60,747 bases of DNA from the sequence record NC_029021.1, one strand, 5' to 3'. This DNA comes from Enterobacteria phage JenK1. Below the pieces are notes generated by a model. That model was not told the origin of the DNA. It searched no databases and saw nothing but the letters and a program-made list of their open reading frames with translations. Of this stretch, positions 10,471 to 42,248 are shown one piece after another (position 1 is the stretch's first letter; every line of letters begins with the position of its first letter). The position numbers and the translations under genes are program-made.

Positions 10471-10899
10471 ATGTCTTCAGAAAACAAACAAGTATCCACT
10501 GAAGTTGCAAAGAAAGCTGTTGGTACATCTTTCCGTGACTTTAACTTGAAAAAGAAATTAGAAAACGCTCCGCTGTTGCATTACCCGCTTGTTTTTCCAG
10601 GACAGGGTGATACAGGTCACTGGTTGAAAATTCGCAACCGCCACAGCGAAGAATTTCGTCAAGCAGATTTAAAAGCGCAACGTCAGATCAGTGCGCTTGT
10701 CGTTGCCAACGGATCTTTTGAAAAGATTGATAAGGACATGCTCGACGATATCAATATGCGAGCGTTCTGTAAATTGGTTGCTTCGTGGAGCTTCGAAGAA
10801 GAATGCAACGAAGACAATCTTCTTGAATTCTTTGATAATAATCCGTTTGCGTATGACGACATTAATCGTCTGGCAGCTCAAGATTCCCTTTTTTTCTAA
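10471..10899 (+). CDS. tail assembly chaperone (G-like)
   Basis: 142-aa ORF directly upstream of tape measure; ends just after a T-rich slippery run. Confidence 0.65.
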   Translation: MSSENKQVSTEVAKKAVGTSFRDFNLKKKLENAPLLHYPLVFPGQGDTGHWLKIRNRHSEEFRQADLKAQRQISALVVANGSFEKIDKDMLDDINMRAFCKLVASWSFEEECNEDNLLEFFDNNPFAYDDINRLAAQDSLFF

Positions 10900-24099: not shown

Positions 24100-24813
24100 A
24101 TGTCTGACATGACTCTTATTCCGGGCGGTTTGGGTGGCGGTTTCGGTGGTGAAGCTGGCGCAGCGGCCGTTGGCGGTGGTATCGGTGGCTTAATCGGTTC
24201 GTGGATCGGAAATGGTTGGGGTGGCAATGTCGGTTGGGGTGGTCGCGGCGGTTGGGGTGGTGGTGTCGGTGAAGTCCAGGCTTCCGTAGATACTAACGCA
24301 ATTCTGCAAGCCATCAATAACGGCAACCTGCAAAACATCCAGGGCCAGAACGGTACTAACCTGACTGTCGAACGTTCTGCGGCGTCCACCTTCAACGGTA
24401 TTACTCAACAGAACACTCAGAACATGCTGGCTTCCGTTCAGGGCTTTGCTGGTCTGAACACTGAAATTCGCACTGGTACAGCGTCTGTCGTAGCTGCTGT
24501 CAATGCTGCGGATGTAAACGCGTTGAACCGTTCCTTCCAGGCTCAGTTAGCTGCTCAGGAATGTTGCTGCGAGACCAACCTGAACATCGAACGTCAAGCG
24601 AACGAAACCCGTGGCCTGATCCGCGATCAGTTTGCTCAGTCTCAGGCTGTTCTGATCTGTGATCTGAAATCTCAGTTGCAGGAAGCTCGCTTTGCGAACT
24701 CCCAGCTTCATCAGACCGCTCAGATCGATTGTAAGATCAATCAGGTTGCACAGCTCGTTAACTTCAAACTGCCAACCCCTCCGACTCCGCCGACTGGTTG
24801 TTGTGGTTGCTAA
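24100..24813 (+). CDS. Gly-rich N-terminal / Cys-containing hypothetical protein
   Basis: 237 aa; N-terminal 60 aa dominated by GG/GW repeats, Q/N-rich middle, CCC and C-terminal GCCGC; strong host-like codon bias; bracketed by terminators. Confidence 0.6.
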   Translation: MSDMTLIPGGLGGGFGGEAGAAAVGGGIGGLIGSWIGNGWGGNVGWGGRGGWGGGVGEVQASVDTNAILQAINNGNLQNIQGQNGTNLTVERSAASTFNGITQQNTQNMLASVQGFAGLNTEIRTGTASVVAAVNAADVNALNRSFQAQLAAQECCCETNLNIERQANETRGLIRDQFAQSQAVLICDLKSQLQEARFANSQLHQTAQIDCKINQVAQLVNFKLPTPPTPPTGCCGC

Positions 24814-26108: not shown

Positions 26109-26144
26109 GTGGGCCAGTATAAACGTATTGGCCCACTTTTTATT
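26109..26144. terminator. terminator at convergent junction of plus late genes and minus replication operon
   Basis: 8-bp stem gtgggcca / tggcccac, 12-nt loop, then TTTTTATT on plus strand. Confidence 0.55.
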
Positions 26145-28116
26145 AAGCGGCGTATGCGAGTTTTTCCAGCAATTTTTCCGCTTTAGCTATGTACACTTCG
26201 TGGTTGAGATCTGGCGGTAATTGGTCAGTGAGTTCCATCATTGGTTTACCCCCTGCTGTCTTACCAACACGACCTCCACTCTTGACTATTAGTATTTCAG
26301 GTACTTCTTCTTTTGTATAGTACCAGCGAACAACCTTACCTAACGGCTCACTATTCCACGCAGCTCCACCATTAGCTGTCTTGATACAAACAAACTTACG
26401 AATATCCTGACACTCTGTGATAGTTTTGGCAATTGGTGTACCGTCACGAAGCAGATTAACAACTGCATCCATAATGATCTCACCTTCTGCGTTTTTAGCA
26501 AGACCTGTCTCAGCGAACCAACCTTTACGCTTGGCTTTACCATCCGCTTTGATTGCAACGTAGTTGTTAACGTTTGCAGAGTTAAGGCGCAGGTACTGGT
26601 TCAACTCCATTTCAAAGCCAGTTGTCTCTTCCCACCACTTAATGATATCTGTCATTAATTGCTTCTTAGCTTTGCAAGGTTTAATAACAATACCGTCCGT
26701 GTTAGCACTGACGACCTGAATACCGTTAAGCTCCAGTGTTTCAATGAGCATAAGCAAAGCCAACTGGCCTGTCAATGTGGTCTGAATAATAAGGTGCGGT
26801 GCATACAGAATAGAGAACGGTGAACCGAACTTACCATAAGAACCGTTAATAACGATCTTAAGAGTTTGTGCAGTCTTATCGTCATGAGCCATCTTAGCTG
26901 CAATACGTCGTTCTACGATCTTAACAAAGATATCTATAAAGCGCGGGCCCAGGTGCTCAGGATACAGTTGCTGGTTAATGATACAGATTGGGTAGTATGA
27001 CGTTACGTCAGCATCCCACATCTCTTCATCTTCAGATGGTACAATCTCCATTAACTCTTCGCAGGAGTGCAGACCACCGATACCCATGTTGTAGGTTGTC
27101 TGATTGATTGTAAACTTCAAAGAGTTCATTGTAGATGGTTGCTTAATTTTACCATCTTCTGCAACTCGGAAGTAACTATCAAGCACAACCTGAAATACAG
27201 ACTTCATTAGTGGAGTTTGGAAACCTAACCACACTGGAGGATTGTACCTAAAGGTTCTGCCAACTTCCACCATTCCCTTCTGTGGTACGAAGCCCAGCAT
27301 TTCCTTCATTTCGTGACGGATTACAGCTTCTGCAATCTGTGCATCGGATTTAGAGCGAAGGTCCACTTTATACTCTTCACTCATAATCTCACGTAGATGG
27401 ATCTGTTCTTCCAGGGAGTTAAACAGAGCCATTGTTGTATCAAGGTCGTTAATACAGTAGAAGCGCACAATAGCGATCTGTTCTACGGATAACGCCCAAT
27501 GTGGTGGGAATGGTAAGTCCTGGAGCTTCTGCATGTGCATACGGCCACCATACAACTTCAGCGAACCGAAGCCAGGAGCTACCTCTTGAACGTCAATGTG
27601 GTCAATCCAAAACTGTTTTACACCAAAACTGTTAAGAATGTCCCACGGAGCCCACTCTTCCTGGATCATCCTGTCACTTGCTTCTTTCAGCTTGTCAACA
27701 GTTAAACCAGCAATGGCAAGGAATGTCATCGTATTATCGTAGTTTCTTGAGTTGAAACCAACAGTACGAAAGTTCTTCATTATCCATTCATATTTTTCCG
27801 TGTCGAGTGTCTGACCGGCAGTCATTTCTAGATAATAGACCTTACCGAACTTAACCCCTTTAAACGCCACAAGAAAATAGTTCTTGTAACATTCAATATC
27901 GTATACGAACGTTTCTTGCGCAAAATACATCTCCACTAATTCACCGTCTGTCATACGCGGATCATTAGCTGCAAAACGCATTGCTGCATCAAGACCTGGA
28001 AGGTAATCCGGGCGTTCCCATACCCTTTCAACTGGTTGACGTTTTACTTTCTGTTTCTTCTCTTTCTTAGCGGGAGGTAAATCCTCCCAAAAGAAACCAA
28101 TAGCATCTTTTCTCAT
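26143..28116 (-). CDS. DNA polymerase, family B, with 3'-5' exonuclease motifs
   Basis: 657 aa; Exo I YDIE, Exo III YCINDLD, motif A DVTSYYP, motif B KIVINGSYGKFG, motif C NTDG. Confidence 0.8.
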   Translation of the reverse strand: MRKDAIGFFWEDLPPAKKEKKQKVKRQPVERVWERPDYLPGLDAAMRFAANDPRMTDGELVEMYFAQETFVYDIECYKNYFLVAFKGVKFGKVYYLEMTAGQTLDTEKYEWIMKNFRTVGFNSRNYDNTMTFLAIAGLTVDKLKEASDRMIQEEWAPWDILNSFGVKQFWIDHIDVQEVAPGFGSLKLYGGRMHMQKLQDLPFPPHWALSVEQIAIVRFYCINDLDTTMALFNSLEEQIHLREIMSEEYKVDLRSKSDAQIAEAVIRHEMKEMLGFVPQKGMVEVGRTFRYNPPVWLGFQTPLMKSVFQVVLDSYFRVAEDGKIKQPSTMNSLKFTINQTTYNMGIGGLHSCEELMEIVPSEDEEMWDADVTSYYPICIINQQLYPEHLGPRFIDIFVKIVERRIAAKMAHDDKTAQTLKIVINGSYGKFGSPFSILYAPHLIIQTTLTGQLALLMLIETLELNGIQVVSANTDGIVIKPCKAKKQLMTDIIKWWEETTGFEMELNQYLRLNSANVNNYVAIKADGKAKRKGWFAETGLAKNAEGEIIMDAVVNLLRDGTPIAKTITECQDIRKFVCIKTANGGAAWNSEPLGKVVRWYYTKEEVPEILIVKSGGRVGKTAGGKPMMELTDQLPPDLNHEVYIAKAEKLLEKLAYAA

Positions 28117-29105
28117 AGACGAAATCCTACAATTACCCCACGTAGATTTTCACCATAAAAAATAATAGGAGTTGAAAGACCCCTTTCGTCCTTTTCATTG
28201 AAACGCGAGGCATCCCAGTCCGTTGCAAGTCCTTTCAACTGCATAATAAGATCTATATTATACACGCCAATTGACTTGGATTCACGGAACATTGCACTAG
28301 CACCATCCAACTCGTTGTAATGTGTGCGTACAACACCGTTTTCCATGTAAATACGCCCATCCCGCTCACAGAACGGTTTTATCTTTTCTAGGCAATTAAA
28401 AAGCTCAGTATCAAGCGTATAAACGTCGGACCCCTTTTCTGTGCGCTCAATTATCTTATCAATGTTAGGCCACTTTAATTCCAGCAATTGTGTACGCAAC
28501 CAGCAACCGTCTTCGTAGTGAAATGTCATACTGGTATCCGTACATTGAATTCTTACTGGTGGCTTTTTAATACGCAATAATTCTTTGATGGCCATACGTG
28601 GCACAACACAATCTACAGGGAATACAGCACCGAACCAATATTGTATAATACTAGCGTTGTTGGTCGCGTACATGCTGCCCTGTTTTACCAGCACGCCGCA
28701 AGACCACGGGCGGGAAGCATCGTCGCTTATAAATGGCGTTACGCGGCTTAAACCGTTGAGAAAAAGCTGACCGTCTATTTCGTGAATTGTTCCTTCTGGC
28801 TCTACGTGTGCAGTTGGTTTTTGAAGAGTATCCACACTAACCTTAAAGCCACCAGACTTAATGCTCAACTTACCGTTCGCCAACATTGTCATCTGTACAG
28901 CTTCATCACATGCTGCAATAGCTTTCAACATTGGTTCAGCTTTAGGTGTGCAGTCAATATTCAGCGGCACTGGACTACACAATGAAATAGTTCCGTTGAA
29001 CCCGCGCACAGTACCATCAACAATACGGAAGTGAGTTAAACCTTCCTGAAGTTCTTTCTTAGCTACAGAACCCTGAACAAACTTTAAAGCATCAAGTAAA
29101 TCCAT
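28113..29105 (-). CDS. hypothetical protein between DpdA and DNA polymerase
   Basis: 330-aa ORF, translationally coupled to polymerase; no motif recognised. Confidence 0.5.
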   Translation of the reverse strand: MDLLDALKFVQGSVAKKELQEGLTHFRIVDGTVRGFNGTISLCSPVPLNIDCTPKAEPMLKAIAACDEAVQMTMLANGKLSIKSGGFKVSVDTLQKPTAHVEPEGTIHEIDGQLFLNGLSRVTPFISDDASRPWSCGVLVKQGSMYATNNASIIQYWFGAVFPVDCVVPRMAIKELLRIKKPPVRIQCTDTSMTFHYEDGCWLRTQLLELKWPNIDKIIERTEKGSDVYTLDTELFNCLEKIKPFCERDGRIYMENGVVRTHYNELDGASAMFRESKSIGVYNIDLIMQLKGLATDWDASRFNEKDERGLSTPIIFYGENLRGVIVGFRL

Positions 29106-29113
29106 AAGTAACC

Positions 29114-30067
29114 TTATTCGTCAAATAAATCCTGGAGACGTTCGTTGAACTTCCCATTGTGGTTAGCAAGAATCATAGCGTTGACCACACCATACGCCCA
29201 TAAATTGTATGCAGCGCGTGATTCGTATATCGTTGAAAGTCGTTCGTATGTGAAACCTGACTCCTCTAAGTAGCGTAGAACGTTATTCTGTTCTATTTCT
29301 GAAAGGTTACAGATATGCTGTCCTTGATAATGGCGTGACGGGGACTTTTCGGATACCTGCATTGGGCCCCACTTAGGAGTTTCAATAGCACCAAACGCCG
29401 CAGATTGAATCCAGGAGGATGAGTCACAGGAGTACCACGGGTAACGCTCCATAAGCGGGCGGGACGTAATACCAAAGCCGTGGACTTTAATCTTAGCGCG
29501 TCCACTACCGTCTACAAGGTGTTTATCCCATACCCTGTCCAGCCATACCTGAAGTTGTTGTGTACTCGCTCCAACAAGACCACCGAGAGTGATATATTCA
29601 TAATTTCGCACATAATGGTCCAGGTATTCAAAAGGTTCACCGGCGTGGAAGCATGGTAAAGGTCTTACACCCCTGGCTTCCATCTCTTCCTGGTTGCGCC
29701 ACGTTTGAAGTGGATCTCCGATACCATCGAGTACAGAAGCCATAAGCGAACCATCTTCTACACGGATGATATCTATGTTTCGTTGGATGTAATCACAGTA
29801 TTCTTTAACCGATAACGTAACTCCCAAAGTGTAGGCTGAGAACGCCCCGGAGTCGAGGAATATCTTGGCCCCATCGGCACGCATGGCATCAACATAGGAT
29901 TGCTTTCCAACGTAGTGCCAGGATTCAAGAATGTTTGGAATATTCTCGACAACGCGTTTTTCTTGCTCGTTGAGTTTGACATAGCGGTTCATTCCTGGTT
30001 TATAGCTGTTCGTATATACGGCAGCCATATAAATCTGAAAGGTATAATCGATATCTTGTCTGTGCAT
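29114..30067 (-). CDS. dpdA: tRNA-guanine transglycosylase-like DNA 7-deazaguanine transglycosylase (DpdA-like)
   Basis: 317 aa; FLDSGAFS motif resembles the TGT DSGGFQ substrate-binding motif and YSCDSSSW resembles the catalytic Asp region; adjacent to the preQ0 pathway genes. Confidence 0.6.
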   Translation of the reverse strand: MHRQDIDYTFQIYMAAVYTNSYKPGMNRYVKLNEQEKRVVENIPNILESWHYVGKQSYVDAMRADGAKIFLDSGAFSAYTLGVTLSVKEYCDYIQRNIDIIRVEDGSLMASVLDGIGDPLQTWRNQEEMEARGVRPLPCFHAGEPFEYLDHYVRNYEYITLGGLVGASTQQLQVWLDRVWDKHLVDGSGRAKIKVHGFGITSRPLMERYPWYSCDSSSWIQSAAFGAIETPKWGPMQVSEKSPSRHYQGQHICNLSEIEQNNVLRYLEESGFTYERLSTIYESRAAYNLWAYGVVNAMILANHNGKFNERLQDLFDE

Positions 30068-36022: not shown

Positions 36023-38026
36023 TTAAAACGGTATGTCGTCATCAAAATCTGGTGGTAGTTCTTTACCGTTACCAGTAAGAATAGGTTGATTAGACGTAGA
36101 ATGCAATACTGTCGTACGGGAATCAGTCTGCTCATCTTCATCAAACTTATTCGTATAACTTCCACCAAACTGGGACAGACCATTCATTGCTGCAATTTGT
36201 ACAACAGGACGTTCGTTTGTTGCTTCTTTCTTACCGAACTCGCTACCGTCATAACAACTATTCAACACTTCAGGGAACTTACCCTTCAAGTTGACATATA
36301 TGTGCGTCGGTACACGAAGCTGGCTGACCACATTGAGAGCTTCGTCAATGTTAGCTGGGATTGCCAAGCTGCAATGCTCGCGCCACCAGTTACGCGCTTT
36401 CTTGCCCGCAAAGCCAGTATGGAACAGGCAGATATATTGTTGGATAGTCTGTGAGCCACAAAGATAGTCGACACGAAGTGTTGGTGGTTTAGAACGGTCG
36501 CCCCTGTTCTCGTGGCGGTAGTAACTTACCATATCAACTTTCAATACCTCAGTGACCGGTAAATCATTCTTGATAATAGCTTTCGTACTAGCACTCGCCA
36601 TTAGTTTCTTCTCAAAAGTAAACTCATGACCGCAATAACCAGCACGGCACGCTTTATTATTTGTAATGGTATAGCCTAATCCTTGTAGATAGAGTATTTC
36701 TTCATGCGACATGCTACTTGTGTCGAATGGTTTTAACCCACCACAGAATCGAACTGACGCATGGTTCCATGTTTTACATACCGGGCATTCTTTAACAGGT
36801 GCAGCGGACTTTCCTTTCTGCCCTGGGCGCTTAGGAATTACAGGGTCATTAATAGGCCCAAGGCGTCTTGTGTTACCTGCATAGTCCAATACAAGACAGT
36901 TCTGTTTATGCGAAGCGGAGATAGCTTGCAAACGACCCTCTGTTGTGGTCAAATCAAAACCATCTGCATAATCAGGTCGTGTACCACGTCCAAGCATCTG
37001 AACCCACAAACGGGAAGATTGAGATGGTCGCATACCAATTATCAAATCAAGCCCCGGATGGTCAAAGCCTGTCGTTAATACGTTGTTGTTTGCTATTGCC
37101 TGTAAACGACCAGCTTTAAAATCAATAAGATACTGGTCACGCAAGGCTTTCGGTGTATCACCAGTTACAACTTCACAACTAATACCGCGCTCGTTGAGGT
37201 AGTCTTTGACATCTTTTGCATGGTCTACACCAGCACAAAAGACAAGCCAACTCATTCTATTCTCTTCTTCCGCAATACTAATCGCATCATCTAATAAATG
37301 GCGAGTTACATCAGGATCGTTTACAACCTTTTGAAGTTCGCTTTCAATGAACTCACCGCCTCGAGTATGAACACCACTTACGTCATACTCTTTCTTTGTT
37401 TTACGTGGTACTAACGGAACAAGATAACCTTCATCAATGAACCAGTTGAAGCACTCTACGGTACACGCGTTAAATACGATTTCATCAAATAGAGCGTTAG
37501 GCGCATAATCATCTTTGATGATAGAACCAAAACCAAGACGCCAACTCGTAGCAGTAAGACCGATAATCTTTAGATATGGGTTCTTTTCACGAATGTGCGC
37601 AAAGAACTTCTGATAACTTGTTTGCTGATTTGGGCTAATAAGGTCACATTCGTCAACTATAATAATATCAACGTCCTCGAAGTATTTAGCTTGTTTTGCA
37701 ACAGACTGAATACCTGCGAACGTTATCATTGCATTCTTATCCTTGCGACCCATACCAGCACTATAAATACCAGTCGGTGCTTCAGGCCACAACTTCTTAA
37801 ATTTATCGTGGTTCTGGTCTATCAATTCTTTTACGTGAGTAATTACCATCATGCGGGTACTACCCCAATTATCGTGAATTGTCTTTAATAGACCAGCAAT
37901 TACAAGGGACTTACCAGTCCCTGTAGGCAACAAGATAACAGGATTTCCTGACTTTTCACCATACTTGATGAAATAGCGCAATGTACTGTTTACAGCTTCT
38001 TGCTGATAATCACGTAGTTTGAACAT
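36023..38026 (-). CDS. superfamily 2 DNA helicase with SSB-like C-terminal tip
   Basis: Walker A LLPTGTGKS, DECD box, Cys-rich region; extreme C-terminus PPDFDDDIPF matches the E. coli SSB C-terminal tip. Confidence 0.75.
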   Translation of the reverse strand: MFKLRDYQQEAVNSTLRYFIKYGEKSGNPVILLPTGTGKSLVIAGLLKTIHDNWGSTRMMVITHVKELIDQNHDKFKKLWPEAPTGIYSAGMGRKDKNAMITFAGIQSVAKQAKYFEDVDIIIVDECDLISPNQQTSYQKFFAHIREKNPYLKIIGLTATSWRLGFGSIIKDDYAPNALFDEIVFNACTVECFNWFIDEGYLVPLVPRKTKKEYDVSGVHTRGGEFIESELQKVVNDPDVTRHLLDDAISIAEEENRMSWLVFCAGVDHAKDVKDYLNERGISCEVVTGDTPKALRDQYLIDFKAGRLQAIANNNVLTTGFDHPGLDLIIGMRPSQSSRLWVQMLGRGTRPDYADGFDLTTTEGRLQAISASHKQNCLVLDYAGNTRRLGPINDPVIPKRPGQKGKSAAPVKECPVCKTWNHASVRFCGGLKPFDTSSMSHEEILYLQGLGYTITNNKACRAGYCGHEFTFEKKLMASASTKAIIKNDLPVTEVLKVDMVSYYRHENRGDRSKPPTLRVDYLCGSQTIQQYICLFHTGFAGKKARNWWREHCSLAIPANIDEALNVVSQLRVPTHIYVNLKGKFPEVLNSCYDGSEFGKKEATNERPVVQIAAMNGLSQFGGSYTNKFDEDEQTDSRTTVLHSTSNQPILTGNGKELPPDFDDDIPF

Positions 38027-40773: not shown

Positions 40774-41721
40774 TTATTCACTAATATCTGTTGGATCACG
40801 GAAACTTTGATGCGTAGGAATACGCAATTTGTCCTTCATACCATGAGCAAAGAATTTCCATTTAGAAATCTTCCCAATGAATTCATCAGGATGTTCAAAA
40901 TAATATTTACGTTCTTCGTGCGTAAGACGACCAGCACCTACACGCATCTCTTGTCCGACTTCAATAAGACCTTCGAGGCCTTCTGGTACTGTAAGCACAC
41001 GTACATCAAATGAGCCAACCATACCATTTGGAACCATATTAGCTTGATGGCTTGAACGATAAGTCTGCCCTAATTCATTAATCTGGGCTTCATTCTCATT
41101 GGTGCAACCTTCGATGATACGAATGATCTCACCTTCACCATCAGTGAAACGTTTAATGCGGAGATAACCGCCTTCACGCTGCGTACTGCGACCCCATTTA
41201 TATTTCGCTTCAAGGTCACGAATGATCACACCTTCGTATCCCATATCAAGCCAAATATTTTCCCACTCCAAGAGTTCTTGTTCGTTGTTGACCACATACA
41301 GTGGCACAAGTTTCACGTCCATCAACTCGCCGTTAGCGTGACATTCGTCCACGTACTTCTTGAGCATATCATAACGCTCTTTGTACGGTAGATGTGCAAC
41401 GTTTGGTTCGCACAAATCGAATACATGCCACGTCCAAACGTATTCACCTTCAATTTTAGATGTTGCACTACTTGTTTTGCGACATAAGTCAAAGTCTGTT
41501 TCGTTCCCAACGGCAAGCTCACCGTCCATACCATCATAAATGGGAGATCCAAACACCTTTGCGACCTGCTTATTTGCAAAAGATTTAAGACTTCGTCCAA
41601 CAAGCTCCCCAAACGGTTTCATTCCACGAACGCCGTCAATTTTAGGCATAATACCTACAGGATATTTCTGTTTAGCTGAATCCCAATCTGTTGCAAGAAA
41701 AGGACGAAATTTTTTAGTCAT
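40774..41721 (-). CDS. ATP-dependent DNA ligase
   Basis: Motif I KIDGVRG (KxDGxR); start at MTKKF (track start 41736 is 5 codons upstream). Confidence 0.75.
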   Translation of the reverse strand: MTKKFRPFLATDWDSAKQKYPVGIMPKIDGVRGMKPFGELVGRSLKSFANKQVAKVFGSPIYDGMDGELAVGNETDFDLCRKTSSATSKIEGEYVWTWHVFDLCEPNVAHLPYKERYDMLKKYVDECHANGELMDVKLVPLYVVNNEQELLEWENIWLDMGYEGVIIRDLEAKYKWGRSTQREGGYLRIKRFTDGEGEIIRIIEGCTNENEAQINELGQTYRSSHQANMVPNGMVGSFDVRVLTVPEGLEGLIEVGQEMRVGAGRLTHEERKYYFEHPDEFIGKISKWKFFAHGMKDKLRIPTHQSFRDPTDISE

Positions 41722-42248
41722 CTGAACCCTCCACATGCAAATTCGTCATGTATAGATTTTCTCATATCATCTAACCATTCTGAAGCAAGAGCTAAACCTT
41801 CATCCGTAAATGGAAACACCTTCTGTTTACGTTTACCATTAACTTGAATTGCGGCGCACCAACGCTCATAACCATTATTGTTTACAAACCGAGATACACC
41901 TTTTACACCGGAAGTGTTGTTAGCCTGAATAATTTTATTACAGTTATTTTGGCTTGATGTGGCTTTTCTAATATTACACCATCTGTTATCAAAACCTTTC
42001 CCGTTTTTATGGTCTATTTCGGCTTGAGGATCTTCCCCTGTCATCCATTTCCAAATGACCCTGTGAACAAAGTAATCGCGTCCTTTAAGACCTACATACT
42101 TATAATTTAGACCATAATACCCAGCTTCCGCTCCAGCAACTCTTCTCCGCCAACTTTTACGCCAACTAAGAATGCCAGTTTCCGCGTTATAATCCAATAA
42201 CTCTTTTAATTCCTGTTGACTATAAGGAATAGGTTTAAATCGAGCCAT
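41718..42248 (-). CDS. HNH homing endonuclease with AP2-like DNA-binding domain
   Basis: HRVIW...IDHKNG...N...NLR HNH motif and GVKGVS...W.A AP2-like segment; free-standing between ligase and RNase H. Confidence 0.65.
   Translation of the reverse strand: MARFKPIPYSQQELKELLDYNAETGILSWRKSWRRRVAGAEAGYYGLNYKYVGLKGRDYFVHRVIWKWMTGEDPQAEIDHKNGKGFDNRWCNIRKATSSQNNCNKIIQANNTSGVKGVSRFVNNNGYERWCAAIQVNGKRKQKVFPFTDEGLALASEWLDDMRKSIHDEFACGGFR

Follow-up and report, generated by a model that had tools for sequence, protein, structure and literature searches.

A DnaN-type sliding clamp between dpdA and the DNA polymerase gene of Enterobacteria phage JenK1, with candidate binding peptides on both neighbouring proteins

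The genome sequence of Enterobacteria phage JenK1 (NC_029021.1; 60,747 nucleotides (nt), referred to here in its full length as the window) carries on the minus strand a tight array of three genes: dpdA, encoding a DNA guanine transglycosylase for 7-deazaguanine insertion, an open reading frame (ORF) of 330 amino acids (aa), and the gene of a family B DNA polymerase. The central ORF, with which this report is concerned, starts with ATG and occupies positions 28113..29105 in the ORF listing of the window, exactly as given in an earlier note that had been made from the sequence alone and had listed the gene as unassigned. It is a real gene: a database search returned 568 homologues at E<=1e-3, with relatives in 319 phage records. 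As the note had also described, it directly follows dpdA (stop codon TAA at 29116-29114, next ATG at 29105-29103, leaving a gap of 8 nt) and overlaps the polymerase start. The plus-strand letters tcat at 28113-28116 read ATGA on the minus strand, where the TGA of the 330-aa ORF (28115-28113) shares two bases with the polymerase ATG (28116-28114); as read from the sequence, this arrangement is a translational coupling of the two genes. The names given to the neighbours held as well. The downstream product matches PHROG 1252 and, weakly, PolB/Pol II models in NCBIfam and Pfam, and its counterpart in phage 9g is annotated as DNA polymerase. The dpdA product matches PHROG 887, a family labelled 'queuine tRNA-ribosyltransferase', and the core of its AlphaFold2 (AF2) model matches TGT and ArcTGT structures. 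The protein is 95-100% identical to the DpdA of 9g-type phages, and the part of the 9g enzyme in dG+ formation has been described (PMC6884629). The 3.9-kb stretch as a whole is 94-97% identical to Enterobacteria phage 9g, JenP1/JenP2, HdK1 and other Nonagvirus (Queuovirinae) genomes. All features are listed in Table 1.

For the 330-aa protein, the designation 'unassigned' turned out to be wrong. Residues 2-330 match positions 11-365 of the 368-position profile of PHROG 947, 'DNA polymerase processivity factor', at E 8.5e-82, so that the lack of a recognisable motif asserted in the earlier note does not hold either. The 9g orthologue gp02 (YP_009032325) bears the same designation in RefSeq, with the remark 'replicative clamp', and further records name the orthologue DNA polymerase beta subunit or putative DNA polymerase III subunit beta. 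The JenK1 protein is 100% identical to the JenP1 product and 99-100% identical to 9g and JenP1 proteins. The identity as a clamp is thus already known from public, computational annotation.

Fold-level comparison led to the same assignment. A single-sequence search of the PDB gave only marginal results (E 0.2), and together with an empty Pfam scan this made profile and structure prediction necessary. A profile built from 56 homologues (alignment A1) matched five solved beta sliding clamps (PDB; E 5e-6 to 4e-5), and hhalign aligned the clamp profile with E. coli DnaN at 86% probability. The AF2 model derived from the 56-homologue alignment has a predicted local distance difference test (pLDDT) score of 93 and a predicted template modelling (TM) score (pTM) of 0.87; its strand and helix elements repeat across three domains, with about two helices each. 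When this model was compared with the PDB by Foldseek, the top 50 matches were all chains of beta sliding clamps (DnaN), at E 1e-19 to 1e-18 and TM scores of 0.71-0.78, with full-length alignments of 368-396 columns. Fold comparison against sliding clamps, which the earlier note had proposed as a check, thus spoke for its suggestion of a clamp-like polymerase accessory factor. Its other suggestion, a DpdA partner that targets the transglycosylase to DNA, gains indirect support from the conserved DpdA tail described below. A ParB-like or DpdB identity of the protein was rejected, as Pfam gave no match (PF02195) and the fold search returned beta clamps only. A two-domain trimer clamp of the T4 gp45/PCNA type was likewise discarded, since the model has three domains within 330 aa and three-domain DnaN proteins make up all of the 50 best structural matches. 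On the basis of the model, the protein is a three-domain DnaN-type sliding clamp of the phage's own.

The segments that are invariant in the family appear to fall where a working clamp would need them. ATNN (147-150) and WP (212-213) align to ATDG (171-174) and FP (241-242) of E. coli DnaN, the latter within a stretch in which WPNIDKII of the phage protein aligns with FPDYRRVL; domain III was left unaligned by hhalign. The invariant residues RG (322-323) and G327 correspond to the C-terminal MRL of E. coli, and the phage C-terminus GFRL parallels PMRL. The E. coli counterparts of the ATNN, WP and C-terminal segments presumably line the peptide-binding pocket (T172/G174, P242).

Table 1. Coordinates of the features of the dpdA-clamp-polymerase region in the window, with the ~680-aa polymerases found at related loci
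Feature	Position	Strand	Details or basis
dpdA, DNA guanine transglycosylase (7-deazaguanine insertion)	29114..30067	-	317 aa; PHROG 887, E 3.9e-98
DpdA tail RLQDLFDE (residues 310-317), candidate clamp-binding motif	29117..29140	-	conservation, low pLDDT
dpdA-clamp spacer, 8 nt	29106..29113	-	sequence read directly
beta-type sliding clamp gene (DNA polymerase processivity factor)	28113..29105	-	330 aa, three predicted clamp-fold domains
ATGA, clamp stop/polymerase start overlap	28113..28116	-	sequence read directly
polymerase peptide RKDAIGFFW (residues 2-10), candidate clamp-binding motif	28087..28113	-	motif conservation
Lys/Pro-rich variable linker, polymerase residues 11-40	27997..28086	-	composition and length differ between loci
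family B DNA polymerase gene	26143..28116	-	657 aa; PHROG 1252, E 1e-228
~680-aa polymerases opening MRxD[AS]xG[LM]FWED	L049:7138-9174, L056:7393-9438, L072:7650-9698, L079:6897-8960, L086:7886-9922		

To see which neighbour the clamp accompanies, we compared 80 related IMG/VR loci (clamp identity 39-100%; tblastn with the window proteins). Here dpdA lies upstream of the clamp gene in 77 and a family B polymerase downstream of it in 71. Among the nine loci without a family B match, four (L049, L056, L072 and L079) have an ORF of ~680 aa after the clamp gene and one (L052) ends at the clamp; four others make up the rest. The frequency of dpdA in these loci might suggest that the clamp serves DpdA exclusively, loading it onto DNA as a functional analogue of DpdB, and is not a processivity factor of the polymerase. 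The Salmonella DpdA is inactive in vitro without DpdB, a ParB-fold ATPase dimer with a positively charged tunnel of ~20 Å, wide enough for DNA (PMC10164549), and no ParB-like protein was detected among 33 window proteins of the replication and early modules that were scanned with Pfam, eight of them also with PHROGs. Against such an exclusive role stand the stop/start overlap, which is with the polymerase, and the loci that lack dpdA: in Pseudomonas phage 73 and Paracoccus phage R3, distant clamps (about 24-26% identity) directly precede a polymerase with no dpdA at the locus, and L072 has clamp and polymerase with no dpdA within 6 kb. Because the clamp-polymerase order outlasts dpdA in these cases, the polymerase is the deepest conserved partner of the clamp.

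The polymerases themselves provide a further argument. The JenK1 enzyme begins with MRKDAIGFFWEDL, in which MRKDAIGFFW is the local version of a peptide, MRxD[AS][IL]G[LFM]FW, that opens every polymerase adjoining this clamp family. Six loci seemed to lack it (L019, L021, L025, L036, L057 and L058); in these the peptide is present and is followed by an insertion of ~60 aa (...DYKTEKKQTLLTEEGWVQVFPGFWAE...) between the N-terminal peptide and the polymerase core. In L049, L072 and L086 (Vibrio phage 1.117.O), the polymerase after the clamp belongs to family A (PF00476 at E 1e-57 to 1e-65) and is unrelated to the family B enzyme of the window; it nevertheless starts with the same peptide, e.g. 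MRNDSIGLFWED, MRADSVGLFWED and MSRFDSIGMFWED. The ~680-aa ORFs of L056 and L079 open likewise and are likely to be family A polymerases too; the family scan covered L049, L072 and L086. As judged from the sequences, the polymerase has been swapped in these three loci with the terminal peptide retained, a portable pattern that appears to be new. Sitting on a variable linker, the peptide tracks the clamp and not the polymerase fold, and so looks like a clamp-binding motif. It resembles QLGLF, the C-terminal clamp-binding motif of E. coli Pol II. Its occurrence beside this clamp on polymerases of two families also argues against a clamp serving DpdA alone, which we regard as very improbable.

We infer, with good support from these sequence comparisons, that the clamp is the processivity factor of the polymerase and binds its N-terminal peptide. 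A beta-type (DnaN-like) clamp of the phage's own, tethering the polymerase encoded downstream and making it processive, is the best explanation overall, and we would put its probability at about 0.88. Two clamp molecules would be expected to join head to tail into a ring that encircles double-stranded DNA, and the peptide M-R-K-D-A-I-G-F-F-W, extended on its flexible Lys/Pro-rich linker, would probably plug the hydrophobic pocket between clamp domains II and III, thereby tethering the polymerase and conferring processivity.

Several points weigh against this explanation. The Pfam scan of the clamp found no DnaN domain and nothing at E<=1, and the TIGR00663 (dnaN) model matched at E 8.7e-6 with 24.9 bits, far under its cutoff of 137.65. 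The protein must therefore be a very distant DnaN relative, assigned mainly by its fold and its membership in PHROG 947; it is not a DnaN equivalog and represents a remote phage branch of this fold. The Gln of the canonical bacterial motif is missing from the polymerase peptide. In the literature, we found no experimental or biochemical study of this clamp family. Finally, no clamp loader was detected among the 33 scanned window proteins. Our guess is that the gamma complex, the clamp loader of the host, would load it. In Edwardsiella phage ZHS, a DNA polymerase III gamma/tau-like loader gene lies right after the polymerase gene (L087:12117-12696), and the ZHS polymerase also carries a UDG domain.

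A likely contact with the host loader, which follows if the phage has none, could also be read differently, namely that the protein is a clamp mimic which interferes with the host, e.g. by sequestering the clamp loader or Pol III, and has no role in phage replication. That the phage engages replisome partners of its host is suggested by another of its proteins: the superfamily 2 (SF2) helicase of an adjacent module (ORF 36023-38026) ends with ...LPPDFDDDIPF (36023-36049, minus strand), the last eight residues being identical to those of E. coli SSB (...PPMDFDDDIPF). The sequence of this end suggests mimicry of the C-terminal tip of host SSB, by which numerous replication and repair proteins of the host are recruited; phage 9g has the identical ending, and similar DDDIPF ends are found in ORFs of L067 and L072. 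Interference as the sole purpose of the clamp is nonetheless highly unlikely in our view, given its tight translational coupling to the phage polymerase, the conserved polymerase peptide that accompanies it at every locus, and the invariance of the presumed pocket-lining segments, as expected of a working clamp.

The second neighbour may carry a binding peptide of its own. The DpdA of JenK1 terminates with NERLQDLFDE, a local form of the ending QDLFD[DE] of Nonagvirus DpdAs. All 77 DpdAs of the IMG/VR loci and all of the 120 best database homologues (at least 70% identity) end with ...[IV]-[QRM]-[EQG]-L-[FY]. In the DpdA alignment (A3), L314 is invariant, and Q312, E313 and F315 are conserved to at least 90%. 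Residues 297-317 of the AF2 model have a pLDDT below 50, as against 70-93 in the core, and the tail is predicted to be disordered. Short linear binding motifs typically show this combination of sequence conservation and low model confidence. The pattern is rare elsewhere: it terminates 71 of the 999 ORFs of at least 100 aa in the window and the 80 loci, only two of these 71 not being DpdA, which sets the background of such C-termini at about 0.2% (2 in ~925 ORFs). One ORF of the tail module, 142 aa long and in the position of a tape-measure chaperone (10471-10899, plus strand), ends with ...AAQDSLFF; such a clamp-motif-like end on a protein unrelated to replication indicates that single matches to short motifs arise by chance.

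Conservation at the end of dpdA could have its cause at the nucleotide level. In most loci the start of the next gene lies at, overlaps or is within a few nt of the dpdA stop, and the last dpdA codons (29117-29131 in the window, with equivalents in L005-L086) double as the Shine-Dalgarno sequence of that gene. The Q-E codons CAG GAG contain AGGAG, the Shine-Dalgarno core, at the right spacing; Glu is encoded by GAG in 44 cases versus GAA in 3, and the variants R-E, M-E, P-E, Q-G and R-G all retain GGAG, GGA or GGG. Part of the conservation in the middle of the motif therefore goes back to the ribosome-binding site, and the dpdA 3' end is, on the evidence of its codons, a clear case of an embedded ribosome-binding site that biases amino-acid conservation. 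At the terminal Leu, all six codons are in use (18/16/11/10/8/6), as are both codons at the Phe, and Q, L and F are kept in those cases in which the following gene carries a separate Shine-Dalgarno sequence past the stop (QQLF loci; QDLFDE in the window). This free choice of codons, together with the retention of the motif beside a separate Shine-Dalgarno sequence, indicates that L-F-COOH, and largely also Q, are under selection at the protein level. As the sole cause of tail conservation, a ribosome-binding effect was thus rejected: it holds in part for the Q-E codons and not for L-F.

Beyond the close relatives, two distant DpdA lineages, each with a clamp gene of its own 0.06-3.6 kb downstream, also end with a hydrophobic dipeptide in most loci, the DpdAs of the Streptococcus Dp-1 type with ...R/K-L-F and those of the Edwardsiella ZHS type with ...S-L-W or G-L-L (Table 2). 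DpdAs that lie beside ParB-like genes, as found in actinophages and in Cellulophaga phage phiSM, have no such tail. Taken together, these cases suggest that the DNA-associated partner of a phage DpdA can be of either of two kinds, a clamp or a ParB-like protein. There are exceptions in both directions. A clamp gene lies 2.5 kb from dpdA in phiSM and distant clamp matches lie nearby in L124 and L125, all three without the tail, and L141 has a tail (...KAQQKLF) with no clamp detected within 6 kb. The DpdA of L104 ends with ...KKQLFGFGL, with a match to the window-type clamp just downstream; for L105 and L106 (...GFGL) and the large contigs L130-L140 (...ARRIGL in most), no clamp was found within 6 kb. 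We had also considered covariation between the tail and the C-terminus of the clamp (M-E-L-F with G-[EQ]-R, Q-E-L-F with G-M-R) as support for binding, and dropped it: a neighbour-joining tree places all M-E-L-F/G-[EQ]-R cases in one clade, so that they represent one event and are unusable as evidence. The co-occurrence of DpdA tail and clamp appears to be a new pattern, and in the literature we found no study of a DpdA-clamp link.

Table 2. C-termini of distant phage DpdAs and their genomic partners
DpdA	Loci	C-terminus	Partner gene
Streptococcus Dp-1 type, 42-99% identity	10 with clamp and complete C-terminus	...RRLF, ...KTLFTF, ...KSLF, ...NRLF, ...RKLF	DnaN-type gene 0.4-3.6 kb downstream
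Edwardsiella ZHS type, 50-100% identity	17	hydrophobic pair in nearly all: ...QSLW, ...GSLW, ...QGLL, ...ESFFD	own clamp gene 0.06-1.6 kb downstream
BcepGomr	1	...QQGLFV	clamp gene nearby
Vibrio phage 1.117.O	1	...QPGLF	clamp gene adjacent
Mycobacterium phage Typha	L088	no such tail	ParB-like gene
Mycobacterium phage Rosebush	L090	no such tail	no clamp; neighbour is an unnamed ORF
Arthrobacter phage Mufasa8	L091	no such tail	ParB-like gene
Cellulophaga phage phiSM	L092	no such tail	ParB-like gene

These patterns raise the question whether the clamp is a hub with two clients, holding the polymerase by its N-terminal peptide and DpdA by its C-terminal ...Q-x-L-F, and so taking the place of the ParB-like ring DpdB. 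Judging from the sequence patterns, we would give this extension just under even odds. The ...Q-D-L-F tail of DpdA would bind the same clamp as the polymerase, coupling the exchange of G for deazaguanine to newly replicated DNA, so that insertion would be tied to the replication fork or to clamps left behind on new DNA. The competing view, that the clamp serves the polymerase alone and that the DpdA tail has an unconnected role (in folding or oligomerisation of DpdA, in binding the host beta clamp or some other partner, or as the ribosome-binding site of the next gene), we consider a serious one that falls somewhat short of even. It draws on the Shine-Dalgarno bias of the Q-E codons, on phiSM, L124, L125 and L141 as exceptions, and on the precedent of a comparable claim, the interaction of T4 alpha-glucosyltransferase with gp45, which was not reproduced (2025 preprint). 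It has to contend with the protein-level constraint on L, F and, where the Shine-Dalgarno sequence is separate, Q, with the recurrence of hydrophobic ends in distant clamp-bearing lineages, with the tailless DpdAs of Typha, Mufasa8 and phiSM beside ParB-like genes, and with the position of a motif of such low background frequency in a segment predicted with low confidence.

With the identity of the clamp settled by public annotation, it is the pattern around it that may be of importance. If the two-client arrangement is true, DpdA would be the first base-exchange DNA hypermodification enzyme recruited by a sliding clamp. This would explain how phage DpdA works without DpdB, and would supply a mechanistic reason for the replacement of 25-30% of G by DpdA1, as against less than 0.1% by bacterial DpdA; deletion of the tail would be a handle for separating catalysis by DpdA from its targeting. 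The main papers on phage deazaguanines do not mention a clamp and describe insertion as post-replicative and free-standing.

Two further ORFs of the window deserve mention. Between the tail-fibre genes and the polymerase gene, on the strand opposite to the latter, lies an ORF of 237 aa (24100-24813, plus strand) with a very Gly-rich N-terminal third (GGLGGGFGG...GWGGRGGWGGG) and the C-terminus PTGCCGC, for which Pfam gave no match. A 176-aa ORF with an HNH_3 endonuclease domain (41718-42248, minus strand) is flanked by the ligase and RNase H genes. It probably represents an inserted homing endonuclease, and the 9g annotation has no gene at the equivalent place.

Among known systems, the nearest is PHROG 947 with gp02 of phage 9g, which is essentially the same protein in the same order dpdA-clamp-polymerase, with no sequence difference to report. 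The bacterial beta clamp (DnaN, e.g. E. coli beta) shares with the phage protein a single chain of three clamp-fold domains that can be superimposed in full length, as well as alignable segments (ATNN/ATDG, WPNIDKII/FPDYRRVL and the C-terminal F-R-L/M-R-L). The two differ in that identity is only 13-18%, that the phage clamp has 330 and not 366 aa, and that it falls under all DnaN model cutoffs. The bacterial clamp works with Pol III alpha, whereas the partner of the phage clamp would be a family B polymerase (family A in relatives), whose gene adjoins that of the clamp and is co-translated with it; the candidate binding peptide is N-terminal and without the canonical Gln, and no cognate loader was detected.

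Non-polymerase partners of clamps are known, such as gp33 and gp55 of T4 on gp45, or the eukaryotic DNMT1 and UNG2 on PCNA. The logic proposed here is alike, in that short terminal hydrophobic peptides recruit several enzymes to the clamp, DNA-modifying ones included. In contrast to these two-domain trimers, the phage clamp is predicted to be of the three-domain DnaN type, and its proposed client is a transglycosylase that exchanges bases.

The DpdA-clamp link suggested here would also fit, by analogy, the need of bacterial DpdA for DpdB. Other phage DNA-modifying enzymes likewise require ParB-like activators, e.g. in the case of 5mYOX/ParB (PMC13229309). Common to these systems and the JenK1 locus would be a DNA-encircling or DNA-loading partner encoded beside the modifying enzyme. 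They differ in the nature of this partner, which is a ParB/NTPase fold in the former and a DNA clamp without NTPase in the latter, the primary partner of the phage clamp being the polymerase.

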